DNA from: Microlunatus sp.
Lineage (GTDB): Bacteria; Actinomycetota; Actinomycetes; Propionibacteriales; Propionibacteriaceae
Reading direction: 5' to 3'
Assembly (NCBI GenBank): GCA_030452945.1
Contig: JAKDLH010000001.1
Location: 1-62,259 of the forward strand
Length of the DNA stretch: 62,259 bases
Shown here: positions 1,240 through 20,026 of the stretch, one piece after another
Layout of the letters: each line of letters starts with the position of its first letter
How positions within the stretch are numbered: position 1 is the stretch's first letter
Notes under the pieces: model-generated
The model's input: only the letters and a program-made list of their open reading frames with translations
The model's database searches: none
Told to the model about the DNA's origin: nothing
Translations under genes and position numbers: made by a program

Positions 1240-1782
1240 TCACGATACTCGCGGCTGCACCGCGATCGTGACGATGACGTGGGCGGGTGCGACCGACCGC
1301 ACCAAAGCGTCGAGGCGGTCGGTGTCGACATCGGCGACCGGTGCTCCGACGACGACGCGCAGGAGCGGAACTTCTTCGCCGGGCAACGGCCCGCCCGGGC
1401 TGGGCGACCAACGGGCGCCGCCGGACTCGCTGACCTCGACATCCACCCCGAGGGCACTCTGCAGCGCGAGCTCGATGCTGCGGCGGGTGCCTCGGGTCGG
1501 GTTCAACGACCCGGCCACGGCCAGCTCATGGCGCTGGAGACCGGGTTCGGTGCCGGGGTCGACGCTGAGCCCGACCCACTGCGCCAACCAGACGATCATG
1601 TCGTCGGGGGTGGTCGCCGGATCGAGGTAGTCGGCAAAGGTGTCCAGGGTCAACAGGACGGGCGCGAGGACCGCGTCGAAGCTCGCGCACAACTCGTTGG
1701 CGAACCGATCTTCGCTCATCATGGCCGGCAGCGTGTCCGCCAGTGGATGGGGTGACGTCAGCCCGGCCACCAAGCCCCTCAT
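1240..1782 (-). CDS. CIS phage tail protein (P2 gpI-like baseplate wedge)
   Basis: MRGLVAGL...YLDPATTPDDMIVWLAQWVG...RGTRRSI. ATGA overlap with the baseplate gene stop. Confidence 0.85.
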   Translation of the reverse strand: MRGLVAGLTSPHPLADTLPAMMSEDRFANELCASFDAVLAPVLLTLDTFADYLDPATTPDDMIVWLAQWVGLSVDPGTEPGLQRHELAVAGSLNPTRGTRRSIELALQSALGVDVEVSESGGARWSPSPGGPLPGEEVPLLRVVVGAPVADVDTDRLDALVRSVAPAHVIVTIAVQPRVS

Positions 1783-3719
1783 CGGGTCACCCGCACCTGG
1801 TGGTCGAAGGAGTAGACCAGAGCCGTGGGCGGCAGATCGATCCGCTCGACGGCGGCGTCCCGCCGTCCGCTGTCGGCCTCGGCGGGATAGAGCGCGACTC
1901 GCACCTCCCGGGACATGTCCACCCCGGGGATCCGCGCCAGGGCAGCGTGCACCTCGTGCGACTGGACCGAGCGCCCGAATGGCCACCCGGCGCCATCCGG
2001 GCCGCCGACCAGGGGGTGGTAAAGCTGATAGAGGGCCCGCTGTACCTCGGTCCGCACCTCTTGCGGGTCGAACCGCGAGCGACAGCTCAGACTGACGACC
2101 GCGGTCAGCCACCGGTAGTCGGGTGGCTGAACCAACAGCCGGGTGCCGACCAGACGACGCTCGTCGAGCGCGTTGCTGATCCGTTCCAGGATCTGCCAGG
2201 GCGGGTCGAGGTCGGCCCGCTCGATTCGCCCCGCCTCGTCGCTGGCTACGTGCGGCACGACGAGCACGCGGACCCCGGCGGTGGCGCCGGGCTCAGGTAC
2301 GCAGGCCACTCGGGCGGCGTCCGGGGCGACGTCGCGGGCCAACTCCTCGAAGTCCTCGGCCGTCACCGCGCGGCCACGCGACCGCAGCAGCAGCGGACCA
2401 CGGGCCTTGGCGTCGGTCAAGGTCTCCGGTTCAGCGCCGCCGATCGCCGGAGCGCGGTTCTCGACCCGGGAGACGTAGGGGATGGAGGTCTTCATCACCC
2501 GGACCTGGCCCCGGGCCACATTGCCGGCCTGGCCACCGCCGGTGCGGTAGCTGTCGAGTCGGATGATCGCTCCGGCCGGCGGCACGGCCCCGTAGCTGAT
2601 CAACTCTCCGCCGGCGGCACGGATCGCCGGACCGAAATGCACTTCGCCGGCGTAGGCGTCGACCCGAAAGTGTCGATCGGACGGGCCGGACTGCGCGAAG
2701 TGCGCCACCTCGGTCCAGGTCTCCCGGTCCTCCCCGGCGAGCACCGTACAGGTGAGCGGAATGTCGGCGGCCACGACCGGCCGGCGACGTAACGCGAACC
2801 GTTGGCCCGGCGTTCCGTCGGAGCGACCGAGGACCTCTTCGCGAACGGTCTCGGCGTTGATGGTGGGAGCCGTACCGCCGATGGTGAACGCCTCGATGCC
2901 GATCACGGTGGGTGATTCGGTGTAGGTCGGCTGATCGGGCTGAGCCTGAACGAGTCGGCAGCGGATCCAGCCCGCCCGCTCCTTGGCGATCACCGACGTC
3001 TGGTGGTCGACCGGCACGTGGATGATCACATCGCCCGGCTTGTTCAGTCCACCGGTGTCGTCGGAGCCGAGATCGCAGGCCGACCAGCCCCCGCCGGTCC
3101 AAGCCTCCCAAATCACGGGTGGACGCCGTGGATCGACCCCTCGACCGGACACGGTGCAGTCGAGTCGCAGCAACACCGCACACGACCCGACCGCCTCACT
3201 CAGTCCGATGAGCAGGGCGTCACCGGCCACGGGGGCGGCGTTGAACGCCCGGAAACCCCCCCGACCGAGCGTCATCGTGGTGTCGACCGGCGGCGTTTGA
3301 AACGGTTGCGTAGCGGAGTGCGCGAAGGCGCAGGACACGATGGTGAGTTCGCGCGTGGTGCTGAAGACGACCGGATCACTGATGTCGGTCCGGGCGGTCG
3401 CGACCTGACTCTGGCCGCGGACGGTCACGTTCTGGGGTTGCGGGGCCGACAGCCAGAAGGTGGTTTCGCCGCGAGAGGCGGCTGAAGACCGCAGCTCGAC
3501 GCCGATCAGCTCCAGGAACTTGACGTAGTGCAGGTCGGGGACCCGGTTGAGGCGGTAAATGAGCTGGTCGACCATCTGGGCGACGGCCTCGATCAGGGTC
3601 ACCCCGGGATCGGAGACGTTGTGGTCGGTCCAGCTCGGGCAACGCTGTTGGACCAGACGCTTTGCGTCGTCGACGAGATCTTGGAAGTGGCGGTCGTCGA
3701 GATCGGGCGCAGGGAGCAT
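1779..3719 (-). CDS. CIS baseplate assembly protein (baseplate J / Afp11-like)
   Basis: MLPAPDLDDRHFQDLVDDAK, WTDHNVSDPGVTLIE, YRTGGGQAGNV, RAVTAEDFE. Confidence 0.9.
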   Translation of the reverse strand: MLPAPDLDDRHFQDLVDDAKRLVQQRCPSWTDHNVSDPGVTLIEAVAQMVDQLIYRLNRVPDLHYVKFLELIGVELRSSAASRGETTFWLSAPQPQNVTVRGQSQVATARTDISDPVVFSTTRELTIVSCAFAHSATQPFQTPPVDTTMTLGRGGFRAFNAAPVAGDALLIGLSEAVGSCAVLLRLDCTVSGRGVDPRRPPVIWEAWTGGGWSACDLGSDDTGGLNKPGDVIIHVPVDHQTSVIAKERAGWIRCRLVQAQPDQPTYTESPTVIGIEAFTIGGTAPTINAETVREEVLGRSDGTPGQRFALRRRPVVAADIPLTCTVLAGEDRETWTEVAHFAQSGPSDRHFRVDAYAGEVHFGPAIRAAGGELISYGAVPPAGAIIRLDSYRTGGGQAGNVARGQVRVMKTSIPYVSRVENRAPAIGGAEPETLTDAKARGPLLLRSRGRAVTAEDFEELARDVAPDAARVACVPEPGATAGVRVLVVPHVASDEAGRIERADLDPPWQILERISNALDERRLVGTRLLVQPPDYRWLTAVVSLSCRSRFDPQEVRTEVQRALYQLYHPLVGGPDGAGWPFGRSVQSHEVHAALARIPGVDMSREVRVALYPAEADSGRRDAAVERIDLPPTALVYSFDHQVRVTR

Positions 3720-4183
3720 CAGGCACCTCCGGTGACCAGCGGGCCGGTGACCGGCGTGTCGTCGTGACTGGGAATGACGTAGAACGGGAAGACGAGGTTC
3801 CGTGGGTCGTTGAGACCACGGATCTGGTAGGTGATGTCGACGTAGAGGCGCCCGGACTCCAGGGCCGAGAAGCTGACCGTGACGTCCAGCACGTCGACTC
3901 GCGGCTCCCACCGGTCCAGGGCTTGACGGACGTCGTACGCGATCTGCCCCGCGGTCGCGGACGTCGCGGTGTTGAAGACGTGGTCGTGGATCCGACAGCC
4001 GAACTCCGGGCGCATGGGTCGCTCTCCGCAGGCGGTGCCGAGGATCAGCCGGATCGCCTGCTCGATCTCGCGGTCCCGAGTGACCAGGGCGACCCCGCCG
4101 GTGGCGTCGGTGCCGAGCGGGAACGACCAGCCGGCGCCGACGAAGTCGATGCGGTCGTGGCCACGGGGCTCCAGCGCGGTCAT
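3719..4183 (-). CDS. GPW/gp25-family baseplate protein
   Basis: GAGWSFP, ILGTACGERPMRPEFGC, WEPRV, RNLVFPFY. Confidence 0.92.
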   Translation of the reverse strand: MTALEPRGHDRIDFVGAGWSFPLGTDATGGVALVTRDREIEQAIRLILGTACGERPMRPEFGCRIHDHVFNTATSATAGQIAYDVRQALDRWEPRVDVLDVTVSFSALESGRLYVDITYQIRGLNDPRNLVFPFYVIPSHDDTPVTGPLVTGGA

Positions 4184-4184
4184 G

Positions 4185-4466
4185 TCAGCCTCCGATGATC
4201 ACGGTCGGACAGCCGGCGACGATAGGCGCGCCGCAGGCGGACAGGTCGCCCATCCGGGCGGCGGGCAGACCACCGATCAGCACAGTGACACTGCCGGGCG
4301 GGACGATCGCCGAGGGTGGATGTGGCGGTGTTCCGGGGAACGAGCACACGTGCGGAGTGCCGACCGTCGCCGCCGGCAAGCCGCCGATGAGCACGGGCGG
4401 AACTCCCGGCGGACCGATGACTCCGGGATGACCGGTGGGATCGCCTACGCGGGCTGCGGGTGGCAT
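4185..4466 (-). CDS. PAAR-domain spike tip protein
   Basis: MPPAARVGD...PAATVG...PAARMGDLSACG. About 93 aa, no C-terminal extension. Confidence 0.92.
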   Translation of the reverse strand: MPPAARVGDPTGHPGVIGPPGVPPVLIGGLPAATVGTPHVCSFPGTPPHPPSAIVPPGSVTVLIGGLPAARMGDLSACGAPIVAGCPTVIIGG

Positions 4467-4495
4467 CGAACACCTCCTGGTTGATCTTGGACGGA

Positions 4496-6304
4496 CTAGT
4501 TGATCTTGACGAGCGAGCCGCGGACCGAGCACATCGCACCCGCCTTCAGCTCAGCGTTGGAGCGACCCTCGATGCTGACCGCGGTGCCGACCAGGGTGAG
4601 GCTGCCGGTGGCCGAGACGTCTACCGAGCCCTGCCCGCCGTCGACCGCGACCCCGGAGCTGCCGTTCAGACTGATCTTGTTGCCTTTCAGCTCAAGATCG
4701 GCGGACCCGGAGTCGATCGTCACGCCCTTGCTACCCACGATCTTGATCGTGCCGTCGGCCTGGAGGGTGATCGAGGTCTGGGCTTGATCCATGATCATCG
4801 TGAGCTGGTCGCCAGCGGTAGTCAGCCTGAGCCCGTCGGAGCCGGAGGCGTCCACCAGGTCGATCCGGTGGCCGAGCCGGGAGACCATCGAGCGCCGGTT
4901 GACCTGTCCGGTGCTGCCATCCACGGCGGTGACCGGGCCCGCCGGCGGCGTGTCGACCCCGTTGTACAGCCCGCCGAACACCACCGGGCGGTTGACGTCG
5001 CCTTGCTCGAAGCCGACCAGCACCTCATCACCCACCTCTGGCAGCACCTGCCAGCCCCGGTCCTGCCCTGCCCCGCTCTGCACCGTGCGTGCCCAACCAC
5101 TCACGTAGTCGTCTGAGAGCCACGGAAACGTCACCTTCACCCGGCTCTGCTGCTCGGGGTCGGAGACGTCGCTGACCTGACCGATGACCAGGGTGTGTGT
5201 CGATGGCCGGCGACCGCCTCCGGAGAGACCGAGCAACGTGCGGTCTCGTCGTCCGGTGACCGAGAACGCGGTGGTGTAACCGGTCAGTGGATCGAACCGG
5301 TGTCGCGAGGTGGTGATCGTGTACTTGCCGTCGAACGGCTCGCCGAGGCCGTCGATGCTCACGGCGGCGCCGGCACGGAGTTGGGGGTTGCCGCGCGCGG
5401 TGCCCTCGAACTCGGCGAAGGAGCTGCCGAGGTCGTCGGCCAGGGCCGCCGCGGACTGGTCCACCTCCGCCTGGGTCCGGTAGGGGATGTCGGTCGCGAC
5501 GTGACTCGACGAGCCGAAGATCTCGGCCAGCTGGGCAGCTGTGGTGGCCGGTAGCTCGATCCGGGTCGAGGTGACCGGCTCGGTCGCGGTGAGAGGTTGC
5601 TTGGTGGCCACGTCCCAGCCGCGGACCTCGACGGACTCGACCTGACCGGCGGAGGTGAGTACGGAACGGAAGCGCAGCAGGTCGCGGCCGAGTTGGAGGG
5701 CGAGCGGCTCGGTGTCCTGAACGCCCCCCGCCGTCGGGGCGGTGCCGGCGACCGCTGGCGGAGTGAGTGAGAACTTCCCTCCGCGCACGGCGATCTCCAG
5801 ATTCGTGGCCCGGGCCAACCCGGACAGGATGTCCCAGTCGGTCTGGCCGGTTTGGCTCAAATGCTCGTAGACGGTGGTCGTGGAGGTGACCTCCCCGATC
5901 TCCAGGCCGGCTCGCTGCGCGATCTGGGTGGCGATGTCGGAAGCGGTCATCTGCTGGTAGCCAGCCGTCCGGCGTCCCCGGAAGAGCCGGTGGGTCTGGT
6001 CGTAGCCGCGGATGACGGTGAAGGTTCCGCCGGTGTCGTACTCGGCCTCGAGCGCGGTGATCTCGCCGTGGATCAACGCCTGAGGTTGGGCGGCGGAGGC
6101 GACTTGGACGCTGATCTTGACCTGGGAGCCGATCTTGGCACTCAACTTGGTCAGCACCAGCCGGTTCGGGTCGCGGAAGCGGAGCGTGAAGGTGTCCGGG
6201 AGTTGCTGGCTGTCGTCGACATAGGCCGAGACAAGCAGGGGAACGATGTCGTCGGGGAGGGAGGCGCCGTCGATCTCGGCCAGACACGTGCTGGAGATGC
6301 TCAT
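4496..6304 (-). CDS. VgrG-like spike protein
   Basis: N-terminal gp27-like hub, OB-fold motif LPEVGDEVLVGFEQGD, beta-repeat C-terminus. Confidence 0.9.
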   Translation of the reverse strand: MSISSTCLAEIDGASLPDDIVPLLVSAYVDDSQQLPDTFTLRFRDPNRLVLTKLSAKIGSQVKISVQVASAAQPQALIHGEITALEAEYDTGGTFTVIRGYDQTHRLFRGRRTAGYQQMTASDIATQIAQRAGLEIGEVTSTTTVYEHLSQTGQTDWDILSGLARATNLEIAVRGGKFSLTPPAVAGTAPTAGGVQDTEPLALQLGRDLLRFRSVLTSAGQVESVEVRGWDVATKQPLTATEPVTSTRIELPATTAAQLAEIFGSSSHVATDIPYRTQAEVDQSAAALADDLGSSFAEFEGTARGNPQLRAGAAVSIDGLGEPFDGKYTITTSRHRFDPLTGYTTAFSVTGRRDRTLLGLSGGGRRPSTHTLVIGQVSDVSDPEQQSRVKVTFPWLSDDYVSGWARTVQSGAGQDRGWQVLPEVGDEVLVGFEQGDVNRPVVFGGLYNGVDTPPAGPVTAVDGSTGQVNRRSMVSRLGHRIDLVDASGSDGLRLTTAGDQLTMIMDQAQTSITLQADGTIKIVGSKGVTIDSGSADLELKGNKISLNGSSGVAVDGGQGSVDVSATGSLTLVGTAVSIEGRSNAELKAGAMCSVRGSLVKIN

Positions 6305-7092
6305 CGCGCCAGTTCCTCGGGTGAGGGGAGCAGAAGCACCGTGCCGGACCGTACCCGGAGGGGGTCGTCGACTCGGTTGAACTGCGCCAGTGCTCGCCAG
6401 GCGGCCGGGTCGCCGTACTCGGCAAAGGCGACTGAAGCCAGGGTGTCCCCGGCCACCGTACGGTGCACCCGTCGGACGTTCTGGCTTCCTGAGGTGGGGT
6501 TCTGCCGGAACGGCTCACCCGGCATCTCTTCCAGGCTCACCGAGCAGACAGCGCGGATCGGGGTACCGTCGGAGGAGAACAGGGTGAACTTCGCGCTGAC
6601 CGAGGTGACGAAGGCGGGGAAGCTGGAGATCGAGCCCCAGTGCAAGACCACCAGTGGCGGTGAGGGTTTCTTCTGCCCGGCGCTCTCTTCGGTCGCCACA
6701 CAGCACGACAGCAGCTTTTCCACCGCAGCCACGACCGAACCGTCTCGCGGTCCGGTGGCGTCGAAGAACATCTCCAAAGTCATCTTCGACGGTTCTGGAC
6801 CGGTGAATTCCGGAGGGCCCGCCTTCTTGGAACCCTTAGTGGGTTTGCGTTCCCACTTGGCGGACTTGGTGATCGTGACTTCCTTGGGGTTGAACTGGAA
6901 GGTGATCACGCCCCGGTTGGCTCCGGGCTGTCCGCCGCCGTTGGCTGAGGGCGATGGGTCGTAGAGCGTCAGCTTCGCCTTGTCCATCTGCGGTCGACCC
7001 TTGACTCCTTTGCCGCCGCCAGAGCCTGCGTCGTCGGGTTTGCCGAGGTCGGCCGCGGCGGCTGAGGTGAGAAGAGCAATGGGCTGATTCAT
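6301..7092 (-). CDS. CIS tube-initiator protein with C-terminal LysM domain (Afp7-like)
   Basis: FQFNPKE, LFSSDGTPIRA, QNPTSG, GDTLASVAFAEYGDPAAWRALAQFN. Confidence 0.85.
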   Translation of the reverse strand: MNQPIALLTSAAAADLGKPDDAGSGGGKGVKGRPQMDKAKLTLYDPSPSANGGGQPGANRGVITFQFNPKEVTITKSAKWERKPTKGSKKAGPPEFTGPEPSKMTLEMFFDATGPRDGSVVAAVEKLLSCCVATEESAGQKKPSPPLVVLHWGSISSFPAFVTSVSAKFTLFSSDGTPIRAVCSVSLEEMPGEPFRQNPTSGSQNVRRVHRTVAGDTLASVAFAEYGDPAAWRALAQFNRVDDPLRVRSGTVLLLPSPEELAR

Positions 7093-7105
7093 CGGGTCGT
7101 CCTGC

Positions 7106-7540
7106 TCACGCCGATCTGGGCAGGAAGCCGTGGTGGGCGAGTTCGACCGTCTCGGTGGCGACCTTGGGGCTGTCCGCGCTGAGGCTCGGGCCGGACCAGC
7201 GCACCGGGACCACCCCGTCGAGGTTCCAGGTCGCGACCACGTCTCGATCACCGGTCATGGCGGTGATGGTCGCTGTTTGCCGCTGCACCCCACTTGCGAA
7301 GCTGCACAACCACGCCGTCAGCTTCGCGCTGTCCTTTCCGACCGGGCGGGTGAGCTTGACGTTGCCGTACTTGATCCGGGTGGGAAGCTGCCAGACGAAG
7401 CCGTTGTTGCCGCCCTCTTCCCGCTGCTCGAGCACCACCTCCAGGCCCAGACCTTCGCAGGAATTGAACCAGCCGAGATCGTCGGAATCGATCTTGACGT
7501 AGAAACACACGCTGACCGCGGGATCGGAGTTGTCGGCCAT
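7106..7540 (-). CDS. Phage tail tube protein (T4 gp19-like), second tube
   Basis: FNSCEGLG, EEGGNNGFVWQLP, PVRWSGPSL, ETVELAHHG. Confidence 0.9.
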   Translation of the reverse strand: MADNSDPAVSVCFYVKIDSDDLGWFNSCEGLGLEVVLEQREEGGNNGFVWQLPTRIKYGNVKLTRPVGKDSAKLTAWLCSFASGVQRQTATITAMTGDRDVVATWNLDGVVPVRWSGPSLSADSPKVATETVELAHHGFLPRSA

Positions 7541-7599
7541 ATCAGGACTCCTCGATCTCGATGGGTGAAGCACTCGCACAGAGCTGCCAAGCGAGACCG

Positions 7600-9273
7600 C
7601 TAGACATCGCCGATCACCCCGGCTCGCTCCCGGTCCAGCCACAACTCGGCCCGCAGCCGAGCCGCCAGCGGCTCGTACAGGCGTCGGGCCATCTCGTCGA
7701 GATCGGCGGGGCCGGAGGGGCTGGCCGGTGGGGGTGACGCCGACGCGACGCTGCCCGCCGGCGGAGGCACGGTCTCGCCGGTGCTGGTGACCGCTTCAGG
7801 CGTCGAGATCGCGTCGCCGGCGGCCGCCAAGTCGGGCGCATCGTCAGGCTCCCGCTGCACCGGGGCGGCCGCACCGGACGCGGACCCGGCCAGAGTGCCG
7901 ACCACCTGTCCCGCGTGGACGGCCGGGCCGAACATGCTGGCGAACGACTTGGCGCTCGCGGCTTCCGATCGTGGTTTTGACGGCGGCGCCGGAACCGAAG
8001 AAGCAGGAATCCCCGCAGCTCCGGGAATCCCCGAAGCTCCAGGAATTTCCCAAGTCCTCGAAACCCTTTGCGTCACCGGCAGGCCGACCATCGTCGTCCC
8101 AAACTCTGCCGAAGGACGGGGACCGGTCGGTAGCGATCGCCCCGCCGCCGGTCCGGCTGAGTGACGCTGCCCCGCGCTGAGCGGGCGAATCACCAGCGGA
8201 TCCACCTGCCTCTGGACCGGCGCCACGGCGGGTGCGTGGACAGGCCCGCGATCGACGGCACTTGGTCGCGCGCCCGGCTCGGCCGCCGGCTCGAGAAGGT
8301 TGGGTACCCGGGCGACCACCGGAGCGACGTACGGGGCAGCGGCGGACGGCGACCGGGGCCGATCGCCCAGCGACGGCCCTTCGGCGGCGACCGGAACGCG
8401 CAAGGGGGCCTTTGGGGTCAGTGCCGTGCCGGTGGCCGGTTGGTGATCATGCTCGAGAGGGGCGGCTGGATCCGTCCGCGCCGGGGCAATGACGTGATCA
8501 GGTTCGGATGTCGTCGCCGGCGATGTCGGCGACGTCATTCCGATCAGGGGTGCGACCTCGGGTGTCGATACTTGTTCGGGGGGAGTCGCCGATGGGATCG
8601 GCTGGTCGACCACCGGCACGGAGCGGGAGACGATCGGTAGTCCGGTGACAGCACGCACGTTTGGCTCGGCCGCGTGGATCTTGGGAGCGAGCGTCCCCGT
8701 AGACGCAGTGGGCGTCCCCGTAGTCGGGGATTCGACACTCAAGACGTCGGCACTGGGCACGTCGGCGCTGGGAACGTCGGCACTGGGAACGTCGGCGTCG
8801 GAGACGTCGACGCTCGCGGGCTCGACGGCTGAGGCATCGCTCGTCGACTCCCACCGCACGGTGGGCAGATCCTCGGCGTCGGTCCAGGAGACCTGGCGCT
8901 GCACCGCGGCGGCGGTCCGACGAGATGGCTTGGACGCAACGGCGAACTCGAAACTTGAATCCGCGGTTGGGTGAGCATGGCTGGGCCGGGCCAAGCCATC
9001 GACCAGACCACCGACCGAGGGATCAATCTGGTGGGCGAGCGGCTGCAGGAAGCGCGGGTCATGGTGGGTCGCCAGACTGTCGGCGAAGTCGGGCGTGATC
9101 GCGACTCGTTGAATTGGGCGGCTCGCTGTGTGGCCGATGACTGGCACCTCTGGCCAGGCACCGTCCGGCTTATTCAGCCCCCGGGGAACAGGAGGTGGCG
9201 ACGCCGGCGTGGATTCCCTCGACAGAGATTGGCCACGGAACCGGTCCAGCCAGTCGGGCCACCAACCCATCAT
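7600..9273 (-). CDS. Pro/Ala-rich low-complexity CIS protein with conserved-looking C-terminal helix; occupies the tape-measure gene position
   Basis: 557-aa ORF with GGAGG RBS. C-terminus DLDEMARRLYEPLAARLRAELWLDRERAG. Confidence 0.75.
   Translation of the reverse strand: MMGWWPDWLDRFRGQSLSRESTPASPPPVPRGLNKPDGAWPEVPVIGHTASRPIQRVAITPDFADSLATHHDPRFLQPLAHQIDPSVGGLVDGLARPSHAHPTADSSFEFAVASKPSRRTAAAVQRQVSWTDAEDLPTVRWESTSDASAVEPASVDVSDADVPSADVPSADVPSADVLSVESPTTGTPTASTGTLAPKIHAAEPNVRAVTGLPIVSRSVPVVDQPIPSATPPEQVSTPEVAPLIGMTSPTSPATTSEPDHVIAPARTDPAAPLEHDHQPATGTALTPKAPLRVPVAAEGPSLGDRPRSPSAAAPYVAPVVARVPNLLEPAAEPGARPSAVDRGPVHAPAVAPVQRQVDPLVIRPLSAGQRHSAGPAAGRSLPTGPRPSAEFGTTMVGLPVTQRVSRTWEIPGASGIPGAAGIPASSVPAPPSKPRSEAASAKSFASMFGPAVHAGQVVGTLAGSASGAAAPVQREPDDAPDLAAAGDAISTPEAVTSTGETVPPPAGSVASASPPPASPSGPADLDEMARRLYEPLAARLRAELWLDRERAGVIGDV
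8744..8805. repeat. 15-bp tandem repeat encoding (VPSAD)n
   Basis: gtcggc(a/g)ctgggaac-like units; protein reads DADVPSADVPSADVPSADV. Confidence 0.85.
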
Positions 9274-9290: not shown

Positions 9291-9452
9291 TCAGCTTTGC
9301 TGAATGCGGGTGTTGAGGCTGCTGACCTCAGTGACGAAGCGCTGCCGCTCGTGATGCTCGAGATCGAGGATGTCGTCGCGGGACCAGTGCAGGTAGTAGG
9401 CGACGTACGCGATTTCGGCGTAGAGCCGGTCGACCGCGTACGTCTCTATTCC
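9291..9452 (-). CDS. DUF6760-like / P2 gpE'-like ORF with no canonical start codon; likely -1 frameshift extension of the upstream chaperone
   Basis: Reads GIETYAVDRLYAEIAYVAYYLHWSRDDILDLEHHERQRFVTEVSSLNTRIQQS*. No in-frame ATG/GTG/TTG. Lies in the -1 frame of 9446..9883. Confidence 0.75.
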   Translation of the reverse strand, partial: GIETYAVDRLYAEIAYVAYYLHWSRDDILDLEHHERQRFVTEVSSLNTRIQQS

Positions 9453-9455
9453 CCC
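9402..9455 (-). other. Putative -1 programmed ribosomal frameshift signal: slippery G GGG GAA (9455-9449) plus a 3' stem-loop (9444-9402)
   Basis: mRNA reads CUG GGG GAA UAG A GACGUACGCG-N23-CGCGUACGUC. Confidence 0.7.
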
Positions 9456-9883
9456 AGGCGGCCCCCGGAGACGTCGACGGCAAAGCGGTGCGAGCAGGAC
9501 GGGCAGGTGAGCGCCGCGCGCGTGTGACCCTCGGTGTTGATCCGCCGGTAGAGATCCTGCAGAAAGGCCAGATCGGCCGCGAACAGGTCCTCCACCACTC
9601 CGGCGTGCACGTCGGTGATGGTCCCGATTCTGGTGATCACCCGCGCGAGTAGCACAACCGTCAGATAGGCCTGATTCTCCCGCACCCGATCGTCTCGGAG
9701 TGGAACAAGCTCGTCCCGCGCGGTCGCCAGCCGCATGCTGCCCTCGCGATGCACCGTGCCGTTGCCGTCCACGTAGCCTCGCGGCAGTACGAACGAGAAC
9801 TCGGTGATGAACGGCTCGGGCCGGACGGTCTCGCTCGGCACGTCCCGGTCGGTGATCATCTCCGCCAGCGAGCCGCGCCGCAT
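9446..9883 (-). CDS. Putative tail assembly chaperone of the CIS
   Basis: TEFSFVLPRGYVD...MRLATARDE...DLFAADLAFLQDLYRRIN...CPSC...GGRLGE*. Directly follows the tube gene with a TGATG overlap. Confidence 0.8.
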   Translation of the reverse strand: MRRGSLAEMITDRDVPSETVRPEPFITEFSFVLPRGYVDGNGTVHREGSMRLATARDELVPLRDDRVRENQAYLTVVLLARVITRIGTITDVHAGVVEDLFAADLAFLQDLYRRINTEGHTRAALTCPSCSHRFAVDVSGGRLGE

Positions 9884-10326
9884 CACTCCACCTCGATGCT
9901 CTCGCAGGTCAGCACCAGCTTCTCCGACAGGTAAGAGGAATCGCCGGCCTTCAGCGTGCCGACCTCCAAGCTCTTCGGCCAAGCGTTGGTGAGCTTGTAG
10001 CGTTTGACGGCATTGCCCTCGAAGTCGAAGACGATGATCGCTCCGCCGCGACGCACGTCGGCCATCTTGCCGAACCGGCTGTCCTTGATCCACTTCTCAA
10101 AGCTGTTGTCGGAGGTCAGGCCGCGGGTCAGGGTCACGTCCGGGGCCTTCGGCCGGCCGGGCAGCCGGCGTAGCTGGTACTTGCCGTCGGGGCCGTTCTC
10201 CTTGAACTCGACCACATCCTGCTCCATCTTCAAGCCGGCCACCTCGGTGATCGACTTGATCGTGATGCCGTCGAACTCCAGGCCGAACGAGTGACCGACG
10301 CTGCTGTCACCTTCTGGAAGGGCCAT
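9883..10326 (-). CDS. Phage tail tube protein (T4 gp19-like), major tube
   Basis: ITEVAGLKME, LPGRPK, VTLTRG, RYKLTNAWPK. Confidence 0.92.
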   Translation of the reverse strand: MALPEGDSSVGHSFGLEFDGITIKSITEVAGLKMEQDVVEFKENGPDGKYQLRRLPGRPKAPDVTLTRGLTSDNSFEKWIKDSRFGKMADVRRGGAIIVFDFEGNAVKRYKLTNAWPKSLEVGTLKAGDSSYLSEKLVLTCESIEVE

Positions 10327-10377: not shown

Positions 10378-11934
10378 CTACTCGCTCACCAGCGAGGTGC
10401 CGCCGGAGAACTGGGCGAGACGGAAGATGACGAACTCGGCCGGCTTGACCGGGGCGACGCCGATCTCGCACACCACCTGCCCGGCGTCGATTCCTTCGCT
10501 CGGGTTGGTCTCGGAGTCGCACTTGACGTAGAACGCCTCGTCGGGGGTGCTGCCGAACAAGGCGCCGGCCCGCCACTCGTTGACCAGGAAGGCGGCGATG
10601 GTCCGCCGGATCTTGGCCCACAGCGCCTCGTCGTTGGGCTCGAACACCACCCAGTTGGTGCCGTTGAGAATCGTCTCCTCCAGGTAGTTGAAAAGCCGGC
10701 GGACGTTGAGGTAGCGCCAAGCCGGGTCGGAGGACAGCGTGCGGGCGCCCCAGACCCGGATGCCTCGTCCGGGGAACGCCCGGATGCAGTTGATGCCGAC
10801 CGGATTCAGCAGGTCATGCTCGTTGCGGGTGATGTTGAGTTCCAGATCCACCGCACCGCGGACCACCTCGTTGCCGGGTGCCTTGTGCACTCCACGGGTG
10901 TCGTCGTTGCGGCCCCAGATGCCGGCGAGGTGACCGGAGGGGGGCAGGAACGCCAACAGCCCGCTGAGCGGATCCATGGTCTGCACCCACGGCCAGTACA
11001 AGGCGGCGTACATGGAGTCGTACCGCGCCTTGTCGACTCGCCACTCCTTGATCTGCTGGGCGTTCAACCCGGGCGGCGGATCGAGGATGGCGATCCGGTC
11101 GCCCATCAGTTCGCAGTGGGCGATCATGGCCGTCTGCACCGCTTGCACGGTGTCGAGGTCAATGGCGCCTTGCTGGTAGGCGCTCATCAGATCGGGCACA
11201 CACAGCATGGTCACCTCGTCGACGGCCTCCAGACCGGCGAAACCCGTACGATCGGCGACATCGCCCACGTAGTCTTCGGCGCTGAGCCTCGTCGACGGCA
11301 GGGCGGCGGCGGCCGGTGGCGCCACCAGGGCGGTCTCGGAGTTGGGGAGCCGTTCCAGACTCCCGCTGGATGTCTCCTCCAGGTTGACCAGGGTGGAGGT
11401 CGTGTTGACCAGGGTGACGACGTTCTGCTTCCCACGGCCCAGCGTGGCACCGTCGAATTCCTCGGCGACCTGTCCGTTGCGTTTCACCACCACCTTGAAC
11501 GCCTCTGCCGATGGACTGTCACCCCCGGGATCGGTGATCTCCACGCTGACCTCGCCGGGCTCGACTCCGGGGTCGATCGCGGTCGCCTTGATCCGGCCGA
11601 TCTGTGCGGTCGGTCCCGAGGCGAGCTGCTTGGCTCGAGCGCTGCGGGGAGCGGGCCCGCTGGGTCCGGGATCTTGACCGATCCGCACGATGTAGCAGTT
11701 GCCGCCACCGTTCATGAAGTACCCGTACACGGACTGGGCCAGGTAACTGCCGGAGATGAAACCACCGAAAGTGGTGGTGAACTGGGTCCAGTTGCTGACC
11801 AGAGTCGGCCGGTTGAACGGTCCGGACTCGGCCAGTCCGACGAACGCGGCCACGGCGGTGCCGGCGCCCTCGAGGGGTCGGGCGCCGGCGGCGACTTCCT
11901 CGACGTACACCCCTGGCGACTGGTAGGTCGGCAT
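10378..11934 (-). CDS. Contractile tail sheath protein
   Basis: PGVYVEE, GVHKAPGN, GINCIRAFPGRGIRVWGARTLS, WRYLNVRR, APVKPAEFVIFR. Confidence 0.97.
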   Translation of the reverse strand: MPTYQSPGVYVEEVAAGARPLEGAGTAVAAFVGLAESGPFNRPTLVSNWTQFTTTFGGFISGSYLAQSVYGYFMNGGGNCYIVRIGQDPGPSGPAPRSARAKQLASGPTAQIGRIKATAIDPGVEPGEVSVEITDPGGDSPSAEAFKVVVKRNGQVAEEFDGATLGRGKQNVVTLVNTTSTLVNLEETSSGSLERLPNSETALVAPPAAAALPSTRLSAEDYVGDVADRTGFAGLEAVDEVTMLCVPDLMSAYQQGAIDLDTVQAVQTAMIAHCELMGDRIAILDPPPGLNAQQIKEWRVDKARYDSMYAALYWPWVQTMDPLSGLLAFLPPSGHLAGIWGRNDDTRGVHKAPGNEVVRGAVDLELNITRNEHDLLNPVGINCIRAFPGRGIRVWGARTLSSDPAWRYLNVRRLFNYLEETILNGTNWVVFEPNDEALWAKIRRTIAAFLVNEWRAGALFGSTPDEAFYVKCDSETNPSEGIDAGQVVCEIGVAPVKPAEFVIFRLAQFSGGTSLVSE

Positions 11935-12076: not shown

Positions 12077-12811
12077 TTACGTGGCCGTCTCGTCCTCGGC
12101 TAGTTCGTCGGGGGAGGCGTCGCGCTGGACGAACAGGCCTTGGACCGCGGCGTCGCTGTCCTCTTCGAGATCATCGTCGGAGTCACGCTGCACCGACGGG
12201 GCCGCAGTCGGGGCAGCCATAACCCGCTCGGCGTTGGCGGCCGCGTCCTGCTCGAACCGGTCGCCGGGATCGGACACCCGGATTCCGCCCGGGGCCGGGG
12301 CGCCGTCGACGGGGCCGGATCGCTGCTGAATCACGTGCGTCAGTTCGTGCGCGAGCGTAAGGCGACCGGCTTCGGATCCGGGATCATAGCTGTCCCGTTG
12401 GAAGACCACGTCGGACCCGACGGTGTAGGCGTGTGCGTTCACCGCGCTCGCTGAGGCGGCGGCCGCGGAGTCGTCGTGGACGCGGACGTCGCTGAAGTCG
12501 GCACCCAGTCGTCCCTCCATGTCGGTGCGGACTTCCGCGTCCAGTGGTCGGCCACCGGAACCGATCACGTCATGCACCGGCGAGGAACGGTCGTCCGGCG
12601 CCTGCTCGTCCTCGAGGAGCTGGGTGACCGCTTCGTTGCCGGCCAGGCGCTGTAAATCGAGCGCGCCGGTCGGGCTGAGAACGTCGAGCCTCCCGGCGGC
12701 GGCCGCACGGGCCTGGACGTCGGTCAACTCGGCGTCGCGCTCGGTGTCGCTCAGGCGAGACGCGGGGGGGCGGAGCGGATCGATTCGTTCGTCGTGAGGG
12801 TGCTCGCGCAC
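12077..12811 (-). CDS. DUF4157 (eCIS core) domain protein with HExxH motif
   Basis: LQRLAGN, GRPLD...MEGRLGADFSDVRVH, AHAYTVG, LAHELTHVIQQ. GTG start placed after a GGAGG RBS. Confidence 0.9.
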   Translation of the reverse strand: MREHPHDERIDPLRPPASRLSDTERDAELTDVQARAAAAGRLDVLSPTGALDLQRLAGNEAVTQLLEDEQAPDDRSSPVHDVIGSGGRPLDAEVRTDMEGRLGADFSDVRVHDDSAAAASASAVNAHAYTVGSDVVFQRDSYDPGSEAGRLTLAHELTHVIQQRSGPVDGAPAPGGIRVSDPGDRFEQDAAANAERVMAAPTAAPSVQRDSDDDLEEDSDAAVQGLFVQRDASPDELAEDETAT

Positions 12812-12890
12812 GGCCGTGACCTCCGCTGGTGGGATCTCTGATTCACCTCGCAGCGTCCCACTCCAGTTGCCAGAAGGGCTAGGCCGGTCA

Positions 12891-12917
12891 GCGCAGATCA
12901 GCTTTCCCGATCGGGCA
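12891..12917. promoter_or_regulatory. CIS operator-like motif, copy 2 (upstream of DUF4157 gene)
   Basis: GCGCA GATCAGCT TTCCC GATC GGGCA. Confidence 0.6.
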
Positions 12918-13172
12918 ACGCATCCAACTTGGCTAGTTCTCAGGAACCCAACGGCCGGGCCGGCGCGGTGGTGCCGATGGCCAGTGCCCCGACGGCTAGC
13001 AGGGCGGCGCCCGCAAGTCCGCCGTGGTGGAGTTTGGCGGGAACCGGGCTCGGGATCGTCGCCGGATGTCCGCCACGGTGGAGATTCGCGAATCGGTGGT
13101 GGAGGAAAGCCCCACAGTGCGCTGGCGACAGGAGGGCTGCGCGAAAGAGCCATCTTCGCTAGCATCGCGGCG

Positions 13173-13691
13173 GTGACGACTCTTGTACTCACCGTGGTCG
13201 GTGATGATCGCGTCGGTCTGGTCAAGGCGCTGGCAGACGTGGTCTCCAGCAACGGTGGCAACTGGGAGCGCAGTCACCTCGCCGAACTCGCCGGGACCTT
13301 CGCCGGCGTCGTGCTGGTGACCGTCCCGGACCGGCGGGCTGAGCGCCTGCAAGCCGCGCTTGCCCCGCTCGACGGTCTGCTGGAGGTGTCGGTGCGTCAG
13401 ACCAGCCCCGAGTCGGCCCCGGTTGCTACCCGTCACGTCAAGCTGGAGTTGCTGGGCAACGACCGGCCGGGCATCGTCGCCGCCGTCTCCGGTCTTCTCG
13501 CGCAGCACAGCCTCCGGGTCGCGGAATTTCAGACCGCCACCCGCGAGGCCCCGATGGCCGGCGGGCTGTTGTTCGAGGCGAGCACGATCATCACGGCCGA
13601 CTCCGACGCCTCGCTTGCGGCGCTCCGCGCCGATCTCGAGCAACTGGCCAACGAGATCATGATCGACCTGTCTGTCGTCGAACTCACCTGA
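13173..13691 (+). CDS. Tandem ACT-domain protein (GcvR-like)
   Basis: LVLTVVGDDRVGLV...LELLGNDRPGIV...EAPMAGGLLF. Confidence 0.85.
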   Translation: MTTLVLTVVGDDRVGLVKALADVVSSNGGNWERSHLAELAGTFAGVVLVTVPDRRAERLQAALAPLDGLLEVSVRQTSPESAPVATRHVKLELLGNDRPGIVAAVSGLLAQHSLRVAEFQTATREAPMAGGLLFEASTIITADSDASLAALRADLEQLANEIMIDLSVVELT

Positions 13692-15777
13692 GCTGCGCGT
13701 AGTACCGGCCGAACTCTCGTTCCAGCACCAACCGTCCCAGCTTGCGGTACTCCTGCTCCACGGCGGTGATCACCTGTTGCATGGTGACCATGGTGCTCGC
13801 TCCGGCGGCCAGGTACGCGGCGGTGGTCGAGGCGGAACGGATGTTGCCGCCGGCCAGCTCGAAGGCCTCAGCCAGGAAGGCGAGATCCAGATCGTCGTCG
13901 ATCGGCAGCGGTGGCGCGAGGCACCGTTCCCACAAGGAGCGGCGCGCGTCGACGCTCGGGGACGGGAAGTCGATGATCGCGTCCAACCGGCGGACGAAGG
14001 CCTCGTCGATGTTGGATCGGAGGTTGGTCGCCAGCACGGCCAAACCGTCGAAGGTCTCCAGCCGCTGCAGCAGATAGGCGCTTTCGATGTTGGCGTAGCG
14101 ATCGTGGGCGTCCTTGACGTCACTCCGTTTCCCGAAGATCGCGTCCGCCTCGTCGAAGAACAGGACGGCGTTGACCCCGGCAGCCTCGGCGAAAATGCGC
14201 TCCAGGTTCTTCTCGGTCTCCCCGATGTACTTGTCCACCACGGTCGCCAGGTTCACGGTGTAGAGGTCGAGCCCGAGATCTCCGGCGATCACCTCGGCTG
14301 ACATCGTCTTCCCGGTGCCCGATTCGCCGGCGAACAGGGCGATCACCCCCCGGCCCCGGCCACCGCCTCGACGCATCCGCCACTGAGACAGGACCTGGTC
14401 GCGGTGCCGGGCTCGGACGGTGAGATCGGTGAGCGCGCGTCGTACCGCTGTCGGTAGCACCAGGTCGTCCCAGCCGACCTCGGGCTCGCTCCGCCGAGTC
14501 AGTCGCTCCAGCCCGGCGGCGTTCTGCGCTCGCACGCCACGGCGTAGATCATCAGCCGAGATGGTCCCCTCGCCGAGCAAGGCTGAAGTCGCCGCCGTCT
14601 CCACCGCTCGGCGAATCTGGGACGGACCGAGCGCCAGGTGAGTGACCAGGTGGGTGAGATCCCGACTCGGGGCCGCCTTGCCGACTCGGTTGAGCTCCCT
14701 TGTCCATTGCTGGGTCCGGTCCTCACCGACCAGACTCGGTGCCTCGACCACGACCGGATGCCTGACCGACCACAGTGGATCCCAGGTCGCCGAGCCGCAC
14801 AGCAGCACGGGGATCTCCGCCTCGGACAGGATCGTGATCGTCTCGGGGTGGCTGGTGGCGATCTGTTCGACCGGCCAGGCGACGAGTCCTTCTCCACGCA
14901 GCAAGGCCTCCCGCACGGCTAGCCCGGCGGCGGCCGGCGGATCAGGCGAACGAGCCAGGCGAGCGAGGTCGATGGTGACGGCGCCCCGGCCGTCGGCCTC
15001 CAACGCTCCGACGGCGGTAGCCGGCCCCGAGCCGGAGCCACGCTCCATCAGGTAGTACAAGCGAACGCCTCTGGCCAGCGCCTGGGCGATGCGGTCCGAC
15101 CCGGGGCTGGCGAAACCGGCGATGGGGGTGATCAGGCCGAGCAGAGCGGGGTCGGCGGCGTCGTCGCCGAGCAGATGCGCTGTGACCCGGTCGGGGACCC
15201 GAAGTCCGCGGGTGAGCAGGGGTCGATCCGCGTCCTCGACGTTCAGCAGCGCGTGCCGAAGCAGCGGGCGACTCGCCTCCAGCCGACCTCGGGCGGCGCT
15301 GTCGAGTTCGCTCACCCCGGCCAGCTGCAGGGCCAACGCCACCGACGCTCGCCGCCGGGTCACGTCGTCGTTGAGATAGCCGTAGAGCCGTTCGAACCGG
15401 ACGTCCAGGTCGGGCAGCATGGCGATCACCAACAGCTCGACGTCCAAAGCCGTCAAACTGGCGTCGCGTGATAGCCGCAGCAGCCGGACATCCGTCCCGG
15501 TCGCGATCTGGTCTGCGGCGTCCCGTTCGACACGATCCAGCCCGGTCGAGTCCATGATCACCGAATCGCGATCGGTCGAATCGAGCAGCCCGGTGACCAC
15601 CTCCTCCGAGAGGTAGAGCCCACGAAAGGGATCGTCGGGATTCGGGTCATGGCGGCGCCGGGCGGCTACGAGTCGACGCAGCCGCTGCTCGACCAGCGAG
15701 GCTCGGCCGAGCAGGTGACGCAGCGAACCCGACTGGGCGGTCGACTGGGCGGCTGAGGCGAGGTCGCCGATCGTCAC
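13684..15777 (-). CDS. CIS AAA+ ATPase (Afp15/Pvc15-like)
   Basis: Walker A GESGTGKT, Walker B LFFDEAD, KYIGETEKNL, HDRYAN, YGYLNDDVTRR. Confidence 0.92.
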   Translation of the reverse strand: MTIGDLASAAQSTAQSGSLRHLLGRASLVEQRLRRLVAARRRHDPNPDDPFRGLYLSEEVVTGLLDSTDRDSVIMDSTGLDRVERDAADQIATGTDVRLLRLSRDASLTALDVELLVIAMLPDLDVRFERLYGYLNDDVTRRRASVALALQLAGVSELDSAARGRLEASRPLLRHALLNVEDADRPLLTRGLRVPDRVTAHLLGDDAADPALLGLITPIAGFASPGSDRIAQALARGVRLYYLMERGSGSGPATAVGALEADGRGAVTIDLARLARSPDPPAAAGLAVREALLRGEGLVAWPVEQIATSHPETITILSEAEIPVLLCGSATWDPLWSVRHPVVVEAPSLVGEDRTQQWTRELNRVGKAAPSRDLTHLVTHLALGPSQIRRAVETAATSALLGEGTISADDLRRGVRAQNAAGLERLTRRSEPEVGWDDLVLPTAVRRALTDLTVRARHRDQVLSQWRMRRGGGRGRGVIALFAGESGTGKTMSAEVIAGDLGLDLYTVNLATVVDKYIGETEKNLERIFAEAAGVNAVLFFDEADAIFGKRSDVKDAHDRYANIESAYLLQRLETFDGLAVLATNLRSNIDEAFVRRLDAIIDFPSPSVDARRSLWERCLAPPLPIDDDLDLAFLAEAFELAGGNIRSASTTAAYLAAGASTMVTMQQVITAVEQEYRKLGRLVLEREFGRYYAQLR

Positions 15778-16454
15778 GTCGTTCTCGTGATCGGGAAGCG
15801 GCGCCGTCTCATCGATACCCGCCCGCCGGGTTCGAACTCTTGATCGGCGAGATCGAACCCCACCTGTTCAGCTCGATCCTGCTGACCGGTGTCGGTGAGG
15901 TCGAACAGCGGCGGCTCGGTCACCGCCGGCCCCACCGAGAACTGCTGACCAGTGTCGATCGGGGTGATCACCACCACGTCGATCGAAGGCTTGAGCTCAC
16001 CGCCGAGGGCGGACCAAACGTCGGCGAAGCCTCGGTCCTCCGGCGGTGGCAGCCCGATGGTCAGCGGGACCGGCAGCTCGAGATCGCTCAGCGGGCCCGA
16101 CAGCACGTCGGTCGGCAGCGCGTCGTAGCGGAGGAAGGTGGCCAACAGCGCGGACAGCATCTGGTGCTCGTCCTCAGGCCGCTGAGTCCAGGCCGTGACC
16201 AGATAGGACAACTTGAAGTGCCGGGGCGGTAGATGCCGGGCCACGATGCGGGCCTGGTCGTCGTAGGTGTTGAGCACCCCGCGGGTACGGCGTCGCAGGT
16301 CCTCGCGAATGTCGTACAGATAGACGTCGACGGTCGGGGTGGTGCGCCGCCCGGCCCACTCCCGGGTCGGCGCGTCGAACACCACCTCGACGTCACGAAC
16401 GGCCGTATCGCGTTCGATCAAGGTGCGCAGCGCGGAGTCCACCTCATGGATCAC
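15774..16454 (-). CDS. DUF4255 / Pvc16-like tail terminator (cap) protein
   Basis: VDVYLYDIRED, LSYLVTAW, EDEHQMLS, WSALGGELKPS. Confidence 0.9.
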   Translation of the reverse strand: MIHEVDSALRTLIERDTAVRDVEVVFDAPTREWAGRRTTPTVDVYLYDIREDLRRRTRGVLNTYDDQARIVARHLPPRHFKLSYLVTAWTQRPEDEHQMLSALLATFLRYDALPTDVLSGPLSDLELPVPLTIGLPPPEDRGFADVWSALGGELKPSIDVVVITPIDTGQQFSVGPAVTEPPLFDLTDTGQQDRAEQVGFDLADQEFEPGGRVSMRRRRFPITRTT

Positions 16455-18111: not shown

Positions 18112-19179
18112 TCAACTGGGAAAGGTCATCAGCCGGACCTCGGTCAAGCTGATCAATGGCTTCGCGTCGGCCGGCGCCGGGTACGCCGAAGCGATTCCGA
18201 TCCGCACCTGAGTCACCGTCGTGCCGCTGTCGGCATCGAGCGACTCCACCGTCGCGGTCTGTTGCAGCGGGAACGGCTGGCACGCCCCACCGTCGAAGCT
18301 GATCCCGATCACCTTGGGCTGCGGCTGCCGGTCGCGCAGCGGGTTGGTCTGGTCCAGACCCGGGTTGACTCTGATCTGCCGCACCCTCGTCGCGGGAAAG
18401 GTGAGGACCAGAGTCCCCGTCCCCGGGGCGGCGCCGCACTCGGACTCTCCGGTCGGAGCCCACACCATGGTCCACTCCGCGACCGTGCCGTCGACCGCCG
18501 CTGCCGGATCCGATCCCGGCGCGGTCGCCGACGGGGGATCGACCTGGGCCTGCACGCCGGCCACGGGCACATAGTCTTTGGTCAGTCGGTACCAGCCGCT
18601 CTTGGCCAGGCTCACTGGGTCCCGGCGCAGCAGCGCGCCGAGCCCGACGCACAGGGCGAGCACCAGCACGGCGATGATCACCCGCCGCCAGCGGTAGAGC
18701 GGCGGCAATGACCGACGGTACTCTCGCCGTGCTTCGCGGTCCCGCGCAGCCATCGCCTGCGGCGTCCAGCCGCTCCAGTCGGCGTAGGGGTCGGTGTCGT
18801 CATCGGCGACGAAGCTGTAGCCGCAGTGCCCGCAGTACCGACGGGTTGCCGGGTTCACCGTGCCGCAGATCGGGCAGTCGAAATCAGCGTATTGCTGGTC
18901 GGCGTACTGCTGGTCGGCATAGTTGTGATCGCTGTGCGCCTGCTCAGGGTAGGTCTGCGTGCCGACCGTGGACTGCTCCGCCTCAGGCCGGAGCCGCTGA
19001 TCGGTCGGGGCCGAGATCGTCGGCCGGTCAACCGTCGATGCCTCCCGGCCGCTCGGCACCGTCGGTTCCGCGCTGGCATCTCCGTCCCAGGCCAGATAGC
19101 CGTTGCAGTTACGACAGAACTCGGTGCCCGGCGGATTCGGCTCGCCGCACGCTTCGCACACCAGGTCGATCGTGATCAC
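18112..19179 (-). CDS. CIS-associated double zinc-ribbon membrane protein with C-terminal beta-sandwich domain (start uncertain, up to 19206)
   Basis: CEAC...FCRNC and CPIC...YCGHC; TM VIIAVLVLALCVGLGALL; C-terminal ISLTEVRL. Confidence 0.75.
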   Translation of the reverse strand: MITIDLVCEACGEPNPPGTEFCRNCNGYLAWDGDASAEPTVPSGREASTVDRPTISAPTDQRLRPEAEQSTVGTQTYPEQAHSDHNYADQQYADQQYADFDCPICGTVNPATRRYCGHCGYSFVADDDTDPYADWSGWTPQAMAARDREARREYRRSLPPLYRWRRVIIAVLVLALCVGLGALLRRDPVSLAKSGWYRLTKDYVPVAGVQAQVDPPSATAPGSDPAAAVDGTVAEWTMVWAPTGESECGAAPGTGTLVLTFPATRVRQIRVNPGLDQTNPLRDRQPQPKVIGISFDGGACQPFPLQQTATVESLDADSGTTVTQVRIGIASAYPAPADAKPLISLTEVRLMTFPS

Positions 19180-19252
19180 CTCCGCAGTCGCCGCATGCCT
19201 CGCCAAGGTCCAGTGTTCGCGGTGATGACCGCGGGTGGCAAGAGGCGCACGC

Positions 19253-19873
19253 TCAGATCAGTCCCTCACGCATCGCGTACGCGACCGCGTGGGTGCGATT
19301 CTTCAGCTGCAGCCGGGTGGTCAGATCGTGCAACACGTTCTTCACCGTCCGTTCGCTGTAGCACATCCGGGAGGCGATCTCGCTGGTGTCGAGGCCGTCG
19401 GCGACCAGGCGCAGCACCTCGGCCTCTCGTGGGGTCAGACCGGTGAAGGTCAGCCCGCGAGGCGCCAGCACCTGCCGCTGGAGGCGTCCCACCTGCTCCA
19501 ACAGCCGCCCCAGCAGGTCAGCCGGCACCTCCCCGTCACCGGCGGCCACCTTCAGAATGGTGTGCACCAAGGTGTCCGCGCCGGCGTCGCACCGGCGCAA
19601 CAGGCCGGCCACCCCCGCCTCGGCGGCCCCGACCAAAGCCGCGTCGTCGATGACGGTGGCCACCAGCATCAACCGGGGATGGCCGTCCTTGCGCAGCGAC
19701 CGCAGCTCCCGCGTGGTCGCCTCGTCGACGGTGTCGGTGATCATCACCGCGACCGCGGACTGCGCTGGGGTCTCGACGATCCTGATCTCCGGTCGCATCC
19801 GGAGCTGGGCGACGACGCCGGCCTGGGAGATCGGGTCGCGTGCGTGGACGTAGCTGGCAACGGCGGTGGACAT
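19253..19873 (-). CDS. LuxR-family HTH regulator with atypical receiver-like N-terminus
   Basis: LTPREAEVLRLVADGLDTSEIASRMCYSERTVKN...RTHAVAYAMREGLI. Confidence 0.92.
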   Translation of the reverse strand: MSTAVASYVHARDPISQAGVVAQLRMRPEIRIVETPAQSAVAVMITDTVDEATTRELRSLRKDGHPRLMLVATVIDDAALVGAAEAGVAGLLRRCDAGADTLVHTILKVAAGDGEVPADLLGRLLEQVGRLQRQVLAPRGLTFTGLTPREAEVLRLVADGLDTSEIASRMCYSERTVKNVLHDLTTRLQLKNRTHAVAYAMREGLI

Positions 19874-19921
19874 GATTGGTGACTCCCTACAGTTGGTTCT
19901 CGACGGCGAGGGCATCGGGGA

Positions 19922-19948
19922 GGGAACTTCCCGTTGCCCTCCAGGGTC
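19922..19948. promoter_or_regulatory. CIS operator-like motif, copy 4 (upstream of LuxR gene)
   Basis: GGGAA CTTCCCGT TGCCC TCCA GGGTC; extra GGGCA at 19910-19914. Confidence 0.5.
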
Positions 19949-20026
19949 CACATCAGCCTCACGATCGGCTCAACGTGCGCTCATCGGTCGCTCAACGACG
20001 CCACGTTCGCCCTCTAGAGTGGGCCG

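Follow-up and report, generated by a model that had tools for sequence, protein, structure and literature searches.

A very likely G/GT-type programmed -1 frameshift between a tail-chaperone-like gene and DUF6760 in cellular contractile injection systems of several phyla

The window, meaning the whole stretch of 62,259 nucleotides analysed from Microlunatus sp. (contig JAKDLH010000001.1), carries a cluster of genes for a contractile injection system (CIS) on the minus strand. The genes at 12077-16454 encode a Pvc16-like terminator, an AAA ATPase and an eCIS-core (DUF4157) protein (PF14065, PF00004 and PF13699). They are followed by the sheath gene at 10378-11934 (PF04984, PF17482) and the major tube gene at 9883-10326 (PF06841, E 2.4e-28). 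Two overlapping reading frames separate the tube gene from a gene of 557 amino acids, rich in Ala and Pro, that occupies the tape-measure position at 7600-9273. Further downstream, at 1240-7642, Pfam matches identify a second tube, a CIS_tube protein, a VgrG-like hub/spike, gp25, baseplate J and a P2_I-like protein. A LuxR/GerE-type regulator and a double zinc-ribbon protein are encoded upstream of the CIS genes, at 18112-19951, also on the minus strand.

The Pfam scan covered 20 ORFs of the window and found the gene set of subtype IId of the lineage II eCIS, which the part of PMC6899500 that was available defines by a sheath, two tubes, an Afp7-like and a single Afp8-like protein, gp25, baseplate J, an AAA ATPase and a Pvc16-like terminator, with no Afp14. 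Judged from this gene content the locus is a lineage II-type CIS of an actinobacterial genome, in line with the preliminary description, which had placed the junction inside a contractile injection system. The nearest named relatives of the locus are Microlunatus and Propionibacteriaceae bins. The Ala/Pro-rich gene has no Pfam or PHROG match and no tape-measure homolog was found at the locus. Its actinobacterial relatives range from about 540 to more than 900 amino acids and have Trp-rich starts and a conserved C-terminal motif; from its position it is predicted to be a candidate ruler. A second tube gene at most 300 nt downstream was found in 22 loci, which have no gene at the tape-measure position there.

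The first of the two overlapping frames, ORF1 (9883-9446, minus strand), encodes 145 amino acids with a C-terminal CxxC zinc ribbon. Its ATG overlaps the stop codon of the tube gene, which lies directly upstream here and in 198/215 related loci. ORF1 ends in CTG GGG GAA TAG, so that the heptamer G GGG GAA (9455-9449) consists of the last base of a Leu codon followed by a Gly and a Glu codon. In the -1 frame an open stretch runs from 9908 until the stop codon at 9293-9291. The part of this frame beyond the heptamer (9449-9291, 52 codons past the slip site) is DUF6760 (PF20546, E 1.9e-13), the predicted T-domain extension, and has no ATG, GTG or TTG. A perfect 10-bp stem begins 4 nt past the heptamer (9444-9402, with arms at 9444-9435 and 9411-9402), and its 23-nt loop holds an inner CGGC/GCCG hairpin. 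These features had been reported before from the letters of the sequence, and their coordinates were confirmed base for base.

ORF1 is tail-assembly-chaperone-like by sequence and by its modelled fold, although the structural matches are weak to moderate. It matches PHROG_508 (tail assembly chaperone) with E 7.5e-7, as do 41 of the 43 members of its family, and Phage_TAC_7 (PF10109) matches six of the 43 weakly. RefSeq names some of these genes 'phage tail assembly protein'. With the AF2 model (pLDDT 83.8) the top Foldseek match in the PDB was the HK97 chaperone 2ob9 (E 0.48). A second aligner ranked YqbN (3klu), 3fgx and HK97 first, with Z 6.8, 5.5 and 5.4, below the level that the aligner calls clear, and rmsd 5.4, 5.3 and 3.6; YqbN and 3fgx are chaperones as well. 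The best BFVD matches were T4-like hub assembly proteins (PF12322, E 1e-6), and Mu FS-gp41 followed at rank 20 (probability 1.0, E 0.035). Both are about 260 amino acids long and apparently composed of two tandem domains, unlike ORF1, and Mu uses a -2 shift. A sequence search of the PDB with the chaperone profile gave no match.

Chaperone homologs also occur in other arrangements. Four cyanobacterial loci (L111, L114, L119, L123) have two tandem chaperone genes, with a slip site and DUF6760 after the second only. Homologs with no DUF6760 match nearby (L071, L073, L130, L224-L226) come from Nostoc, a Rhodospirillaceae bin, a Deinococcus plasmid, where a small overlapping ORF is present, and viral contigs.

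The likeness of the extension to gpE' of phage P2, suggested in the preliminary description, was recovered with profile comparison. The DUF6760 family aligned with P2 gpE' in hhalign over 38 columns (probability 66%, pairwise E 5.6e-5), and Phage_P2_GpE (PF06528) weakly matched 13 of 37 family members (best E 0.008). These values argue modestly for homology between DUF6760 and the P2 frameshift extension. Direct comparison of ORF1 with P2 gpE and Mu gp41, and of the extension with the Mu extension, gave no match, and a fold search with the 54-aa extension returned small helical proteins only, none with E < 0.1.

For comparison 234 loci were gathered. Both parts were present in 223 and absent as a pair in 11 (L071, L073, L074, L089, L130, L224-L226, L232-L234). 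Exclusion of seven loci with indels or duplicates, and of the copy of the window itself (L075), left 215. The preliminary description had considered the signal in actinobacterial systems only. This proved too narrow: the 215 loci span Actinomycetota, Cyanobacteria, Bacillota, Pseudomonadota, haloarchaea and phage-like contigs.

The -1 offset was constant in 213/215 loci, and a slippery heptamer in the frame of ORF1 was found in 206/215, counts that overstate independence because the loci are related. The heptamer of L069 was judged to be there by chance and counted as absent, and for L125 the neighbouring heptamer was picked. After dereplication at 80% identity the offset was seen in 80/82 and the site in 76/82. 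Among the loci found through DUF6760 alone the signal was present in 21/21 cyanobacterial loci (mean GC 42%) and in 17/23 of Actinomycetota. A later sample of Pseudomonadota had the -1 offset in 3/3 loci above the cut-off, with sites that include G GGA AAG and G GGG GAG. A slippery site is absent in 8/215 loci, each of which has a start codon, and two of these are in frame 0. Two loci of the zinc-ribbon type (L203, L206) have lost the slippery site and kept a GTG.

The heptamer by itself does not exceed what chance would give, in contrast to the conservation of its position and frame among relatives. Three copies of G GGG GAA occur in the window, against 9.4 expected. Slip-like heptamers in the body of the chaperone gene occupy 36 of 9536 codons, compared with 76 of the 82 dereplicated junctions. 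The P-site codon is GGG in 69/76 sites, whereas 172/685 Gly codons in the body are GGG. The codon before GGG varies (10 codons for 9 residues) yet ends in G in 199/199 G-type sites, and the G run starts there in all of them; 217 of the 685 body Gly codons are preceded by G. The exception at that base is L206, which has a T and reads T GGG GAA. The G run is five to seven bases long in 194/199 sites, and the chaperone stop follows 0 to 13 codons after the heptamer.

G GGG GAA departs from the canonical XXXYYYZ form. Changed sites remain slippery: G GGG GGG, G GGG GGA, G GGA AAA, G GGA AAT, T TTT TTC, A AAT TTT and, in L252, G GGA AAG, the slip site of lambda. The haloarchaeal loci L124 (Halogeometricum pHBOR03) and L125 (Haloferax larsenii) have G GGA AAT and G GGA AAC, respectively, three codons before the chaperone stop, together with an ATG. 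In L124 the heptamer and ATG are accompanied by no stem (z +0.9). The sequences of these two loci suggest a possible archaeal -1 frameshift.

The stem-loop, a predicted stimulator of the frameshift, has in the window a minimum free energy of -31 kcal/mol (z -3.8), which one of 200 shuffles equalled. In the relatives the 51 nt after the site folded with z < -1.64 against synonymous shuffles in 60/75 loci (mean z -2.8); the same test on three control windows gave 8/75, 13/75 and 11/73. In the main register, defined on 117 sequences, 89.5% of the cells pair and 59 two-sided changes were counted, compared with 15.4 in shuffled data (0/500 reached 59) and 3-26 in slid controls; the count does not amount to a probability, because the helix was chosen from these related sequences. 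The stem covariation that had been proposed as a check was thus found. A second register with other pairing partners occurs in 32/161 distinct junctions, from cyanobacteria and others. The Val codon GTA is found in 29/33 loci with the 5' arm of this second register and in 0/111 with the other arm. The inner hairpin varies between loci. Rfam gave no match around the slip site, and no upstream stimulator resembling a Shine-Dalgarno sequence was established.

A start codon for DUF6760 is present in 154/215 loci, and in 131 it sits 2 nt past the heptamer and overlaps the chaperone stop as RTGA. This is what translational coupling predicts. DUF6760 could accordingly always be made independently, by re-initiation coupled to the chaperone stop, with the G run as a Shine-Dalgarno sequence and with near-cognate starts in the start-less loci; a clade without the heptamer, in which DUF6760 has its own ATG or GTG, and a near-cognate codon in 42/51 start-less G-run loci (ATA or ACG in the frame of the window) agree with it. 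We nevertheless regard this explanation as improbable. A full-length start is absent in 52 of the 206 loci with a heptamer, 41 of which have no ATG, GTG or TTG at all before an invariant Glu, and nine start-less loci are devoid of near-cognate codons too. Where a start exists its position varies (-1, 2, 5, 8 or 14 nt from the heptamer), but 32 nt separate the heptamer from the invariant Glu in 186/207. A Shine-Dalgarno sequence has no need of the phase of ORF1 and would not be replaceable by TTTTTTC or AAATTTT, and initiation would be harder with a strong stem folded over the start region. The GTGA overlap is also seen in phage P2, at the stop of the chaperone gene, for which GenBank annotates a -1 frameshift; a GTG at the junction is therefore no argument against slippage. 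Additional coupled initiation may accompany the slip where a GTG or ATG exists.

Production of the fusion through slippage of RNA polymerase on the G run, with one added G, is less probable still. The length of the run in most sites fits such a mechanism, but the run is short and is held in one fixed codon phase in 199/199 sites, variants exist with three or four Gs followed by A as well as other XXXYYYZ sites, and the conserved stem lies 3' of the site at the spacing of a ribosome. The idea that the -1 ORF of the window is a decayed gene that has lost its start, or an assembly error, could draw on the GTG that most Streptomyces relatives have at the place where the window reads GAG. It is largely refuted and the least likely of the three. 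The junction of the window is identical in contigs of run X2 and of X4, which belongs to a separate study, and TAG-AG is also read in 3/10 same-genus relatives, so the GAG is not a sequencing error for GTG, a point that the preliminary description had named as a possible refutation. The would-be start in the ten same-genus relatives is GAG in three, ATG in two, CTG in four and GTG in one. A quick tree with 93 rows required 20 changes for the start-less state, at least 10 of them forced by strongly supported branches. In start-less DUF6760 frames pN/pS was 0.34 and 0.37, compared with 0.9-2.0 in other frames; the start-less frames are under purifying selection.

The best explanation is a programmed -1 ribosomal frameshift that gives a G/GT pair, to which we assign a probability of roughly 0.88. 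The predicted products are a short form of 145 amino acids (16.1 kDa) and a fusion of 197 amino acids (about 22.4 kDa), the lengths proposed earlier. Homologies, frame offset, conservation, covariation and selection in the -1 frame were computed directly; the slip, the ratio of the products and their partners are what we infer. The earlier suggestion that DUF6760 'genes' are frameshift extensions agrees with most loci, given the offset and the site reported above. It does not extend to one actinobacterial clade with an independent gene, and it has to accommodate the start codons that 154/215 loci keep.

That clade (support 99) comprises L086, L090, L092, L094, L095, L096 and L069. It has no G-run site, a long acidic tail replaces the zinc ribbon of the chaperone, DUF6760 starts at its own ATG or GTG (in L069 only at CTG), and directly after it comes the second tube gene. 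In another CIS type the chaperone-like and DUF6760-like parts lie in one frame after the tube gene. These in-frame fusions (L255, 1438-2289, minus strand; L258, 2800-3516; L259, 2767-3501) encode proteins of 238-283 amino acids in which a DUF6760-like C-terminus follows two CxxC chaperone-like units; hhalign gave a probability of 96% for the C-terminus and 72% for the chaperone part. They come from a Pseudomonadota genome and from Paracoccus and Streptomyces plasmids, respectively. The encoding as a single protein in one frame supports the view that the joined protein is functional. Long DUF6760 proteins in general were also considered as natural fusions and rejected; 47/69 hold both parts, nearly all are singletons and their frame changes are scattered, which points to assembly indels.

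Phage-like IMG/VR contigs (L228-L231) have CIS-like sheath, tube and terminator genes and the same chaperone family, with T TTT TTC or A AAT TTT sites. In L229 the order is sheath, tube, chaperone with T TTT TTC, DUF6760-like frame and tape measure, the last being a true PhageMin_Tail gene. L229 and L230 match PF12322. These contigs are possibly relatives of the phage ancestor of the lineage II systems.

The closest known arrangement is that of P2, where gpE and gpE+E' are made from the operon FI-FII-E-E'-T. The order of sheath, tube, chaperone and extension, the -1 frame and an extension that can be aligned with DUF6760 are common to both. P2 differs in its slip site, T TTT TTG, which lies about five codons ahead of the stop, in that gpE has no zinc ribbon, in the classical tape-measure gene that follows, and in being a phage. 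Lambda gpG/gpGT and the G-T pairs of long-tailed phages likewise have a chaperone after the tube gene and a -1 extension. In lambda, G binds the tape measure and T the tube subunit, at a ratio of 30:1, according to the available part of PMC5009743, whose scope is phages and haloarchaeal viruses and not cellular injection systems.

GGGGGAA had been named in the preliminary description as a slippery site of mycobacteriophages. It is the site of about a thousand annotated actinophage frameshifts, with G:U re-pairing, in the portion of PMC10885494 that was available, and the heptamer of actinobacteriophage chaperone frameshifts is identical to that of the window. Since tblastn of ORF1 and of the DUF6760 protein against 50,697 phage records gave no match, the actinophage proteins are distant; the common heptamer may be convergent. 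The cytoplasmic CIS of Streptomyces coelicolor, a lineage II eCIS, shares the gene set and order, and Streptomyces loci carry the same junction. In terms of gene order, with sheath and tube ahead of it, sco4251 would correspond to the chaperone; it is termed a protein of unknown function in PMC10020575, as far as that text was available. A typical tape measure is absent from lineage II eCIS in the available part of PMC10066040, and the lineage II specific genes have no known domains in that of PMC6899500.

By this frameshift, the stem would make the ribosome pause while tRNA-Gly reads GGG and tRNA-Glu reads GAA. The two tRNAs would slip back by one base, from GGG to GGG with perfect pairing and from GAA to GGA through a G:U pair, and translation would pass the TAG into DUF6760. 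The result would be an abundant 145-aa G form and a rarer 197-aa GT form. By analogy with lambda and P2, many copies of G would form a coat around a long protein of the lumen or one that sets the length, for which the product of the Ala/Pro-rich gene is a candidate. A few copies of GT would link the coated protein to tube subunits, presumably those of the major tube gene, and so start polymerisation of the tube. An alternative candidate client is the tape-measure-related cargo that is encoded elsewhere in the case of Streptomyces clusters, as described in the parts of PMC11126660 and PMC13277306 that were available.

Full-text searches, with subscription papers outside their scope, gave no description of this frameshift in contractile injection systems and no mention of DUF6760, in agreement with the preliminary description, which knew of none for eCIS. 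The word 'frameshift' does not occur in the main texts of PMC10020575, PMC10066040, PMC11126660, PMC13277306, PMC11566945, PMC12998442, PMC12210884, PMC6899500 and PMC8213781, whose supplementary tables could name chaperones. The available part of PMC3711429 concerns only an HK97-like phage chaperone cluster, and that of PMC10299305 a Wolbachia phage. Phages are already known to use this mechanism. What appears to be unreported is its occurrence in these systems, what DUF6760 represents, and the existence of three alternative encodings.

It is very likely that a G/GT-type programmed frameshift has been kept by cellular injection systems across phyla. A wider proposal, for which we see slightly less than even odds, is that lineage II CIS of bacteria and archaea, thought to be without a tape measure, have kept the whole phage G/GT module. 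It would be a conserved cellular recoding in at least four bacterial phyla and haloarchaea, swapped in some lineages for split genes or an in-frame fusion, and the pair would now serve a disordered Ala/Pro-rich ruler or lumen cargo and in this way set the length of the tube or load effectors.

On the reading as a G/GT pair, two conserved and so far unexplained lineage II genes, the gene after the tube and DUF6760, would receive a function, and the annotation would be corrected in many genomes, including those of Streptomyces, cyanobacteria and Halogeometricum, where such systems are studied. How a syringe without a recognised tape measure is assembled so as to reach a constant length, which in S. 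coelicolor is about 295 nm (PMC10020575, in the part available), becomes a testable question. The known cases of -1 recoding would also gain one that is widespread on chromosomes, and for which the naturally split and fused versions serve as built-in controls. Operon deletions, tags or refactoring that are blind to the slip site would lose one of the two products. DUF6760 would gain a likely job, and the pair would point to how these syringes may be built.
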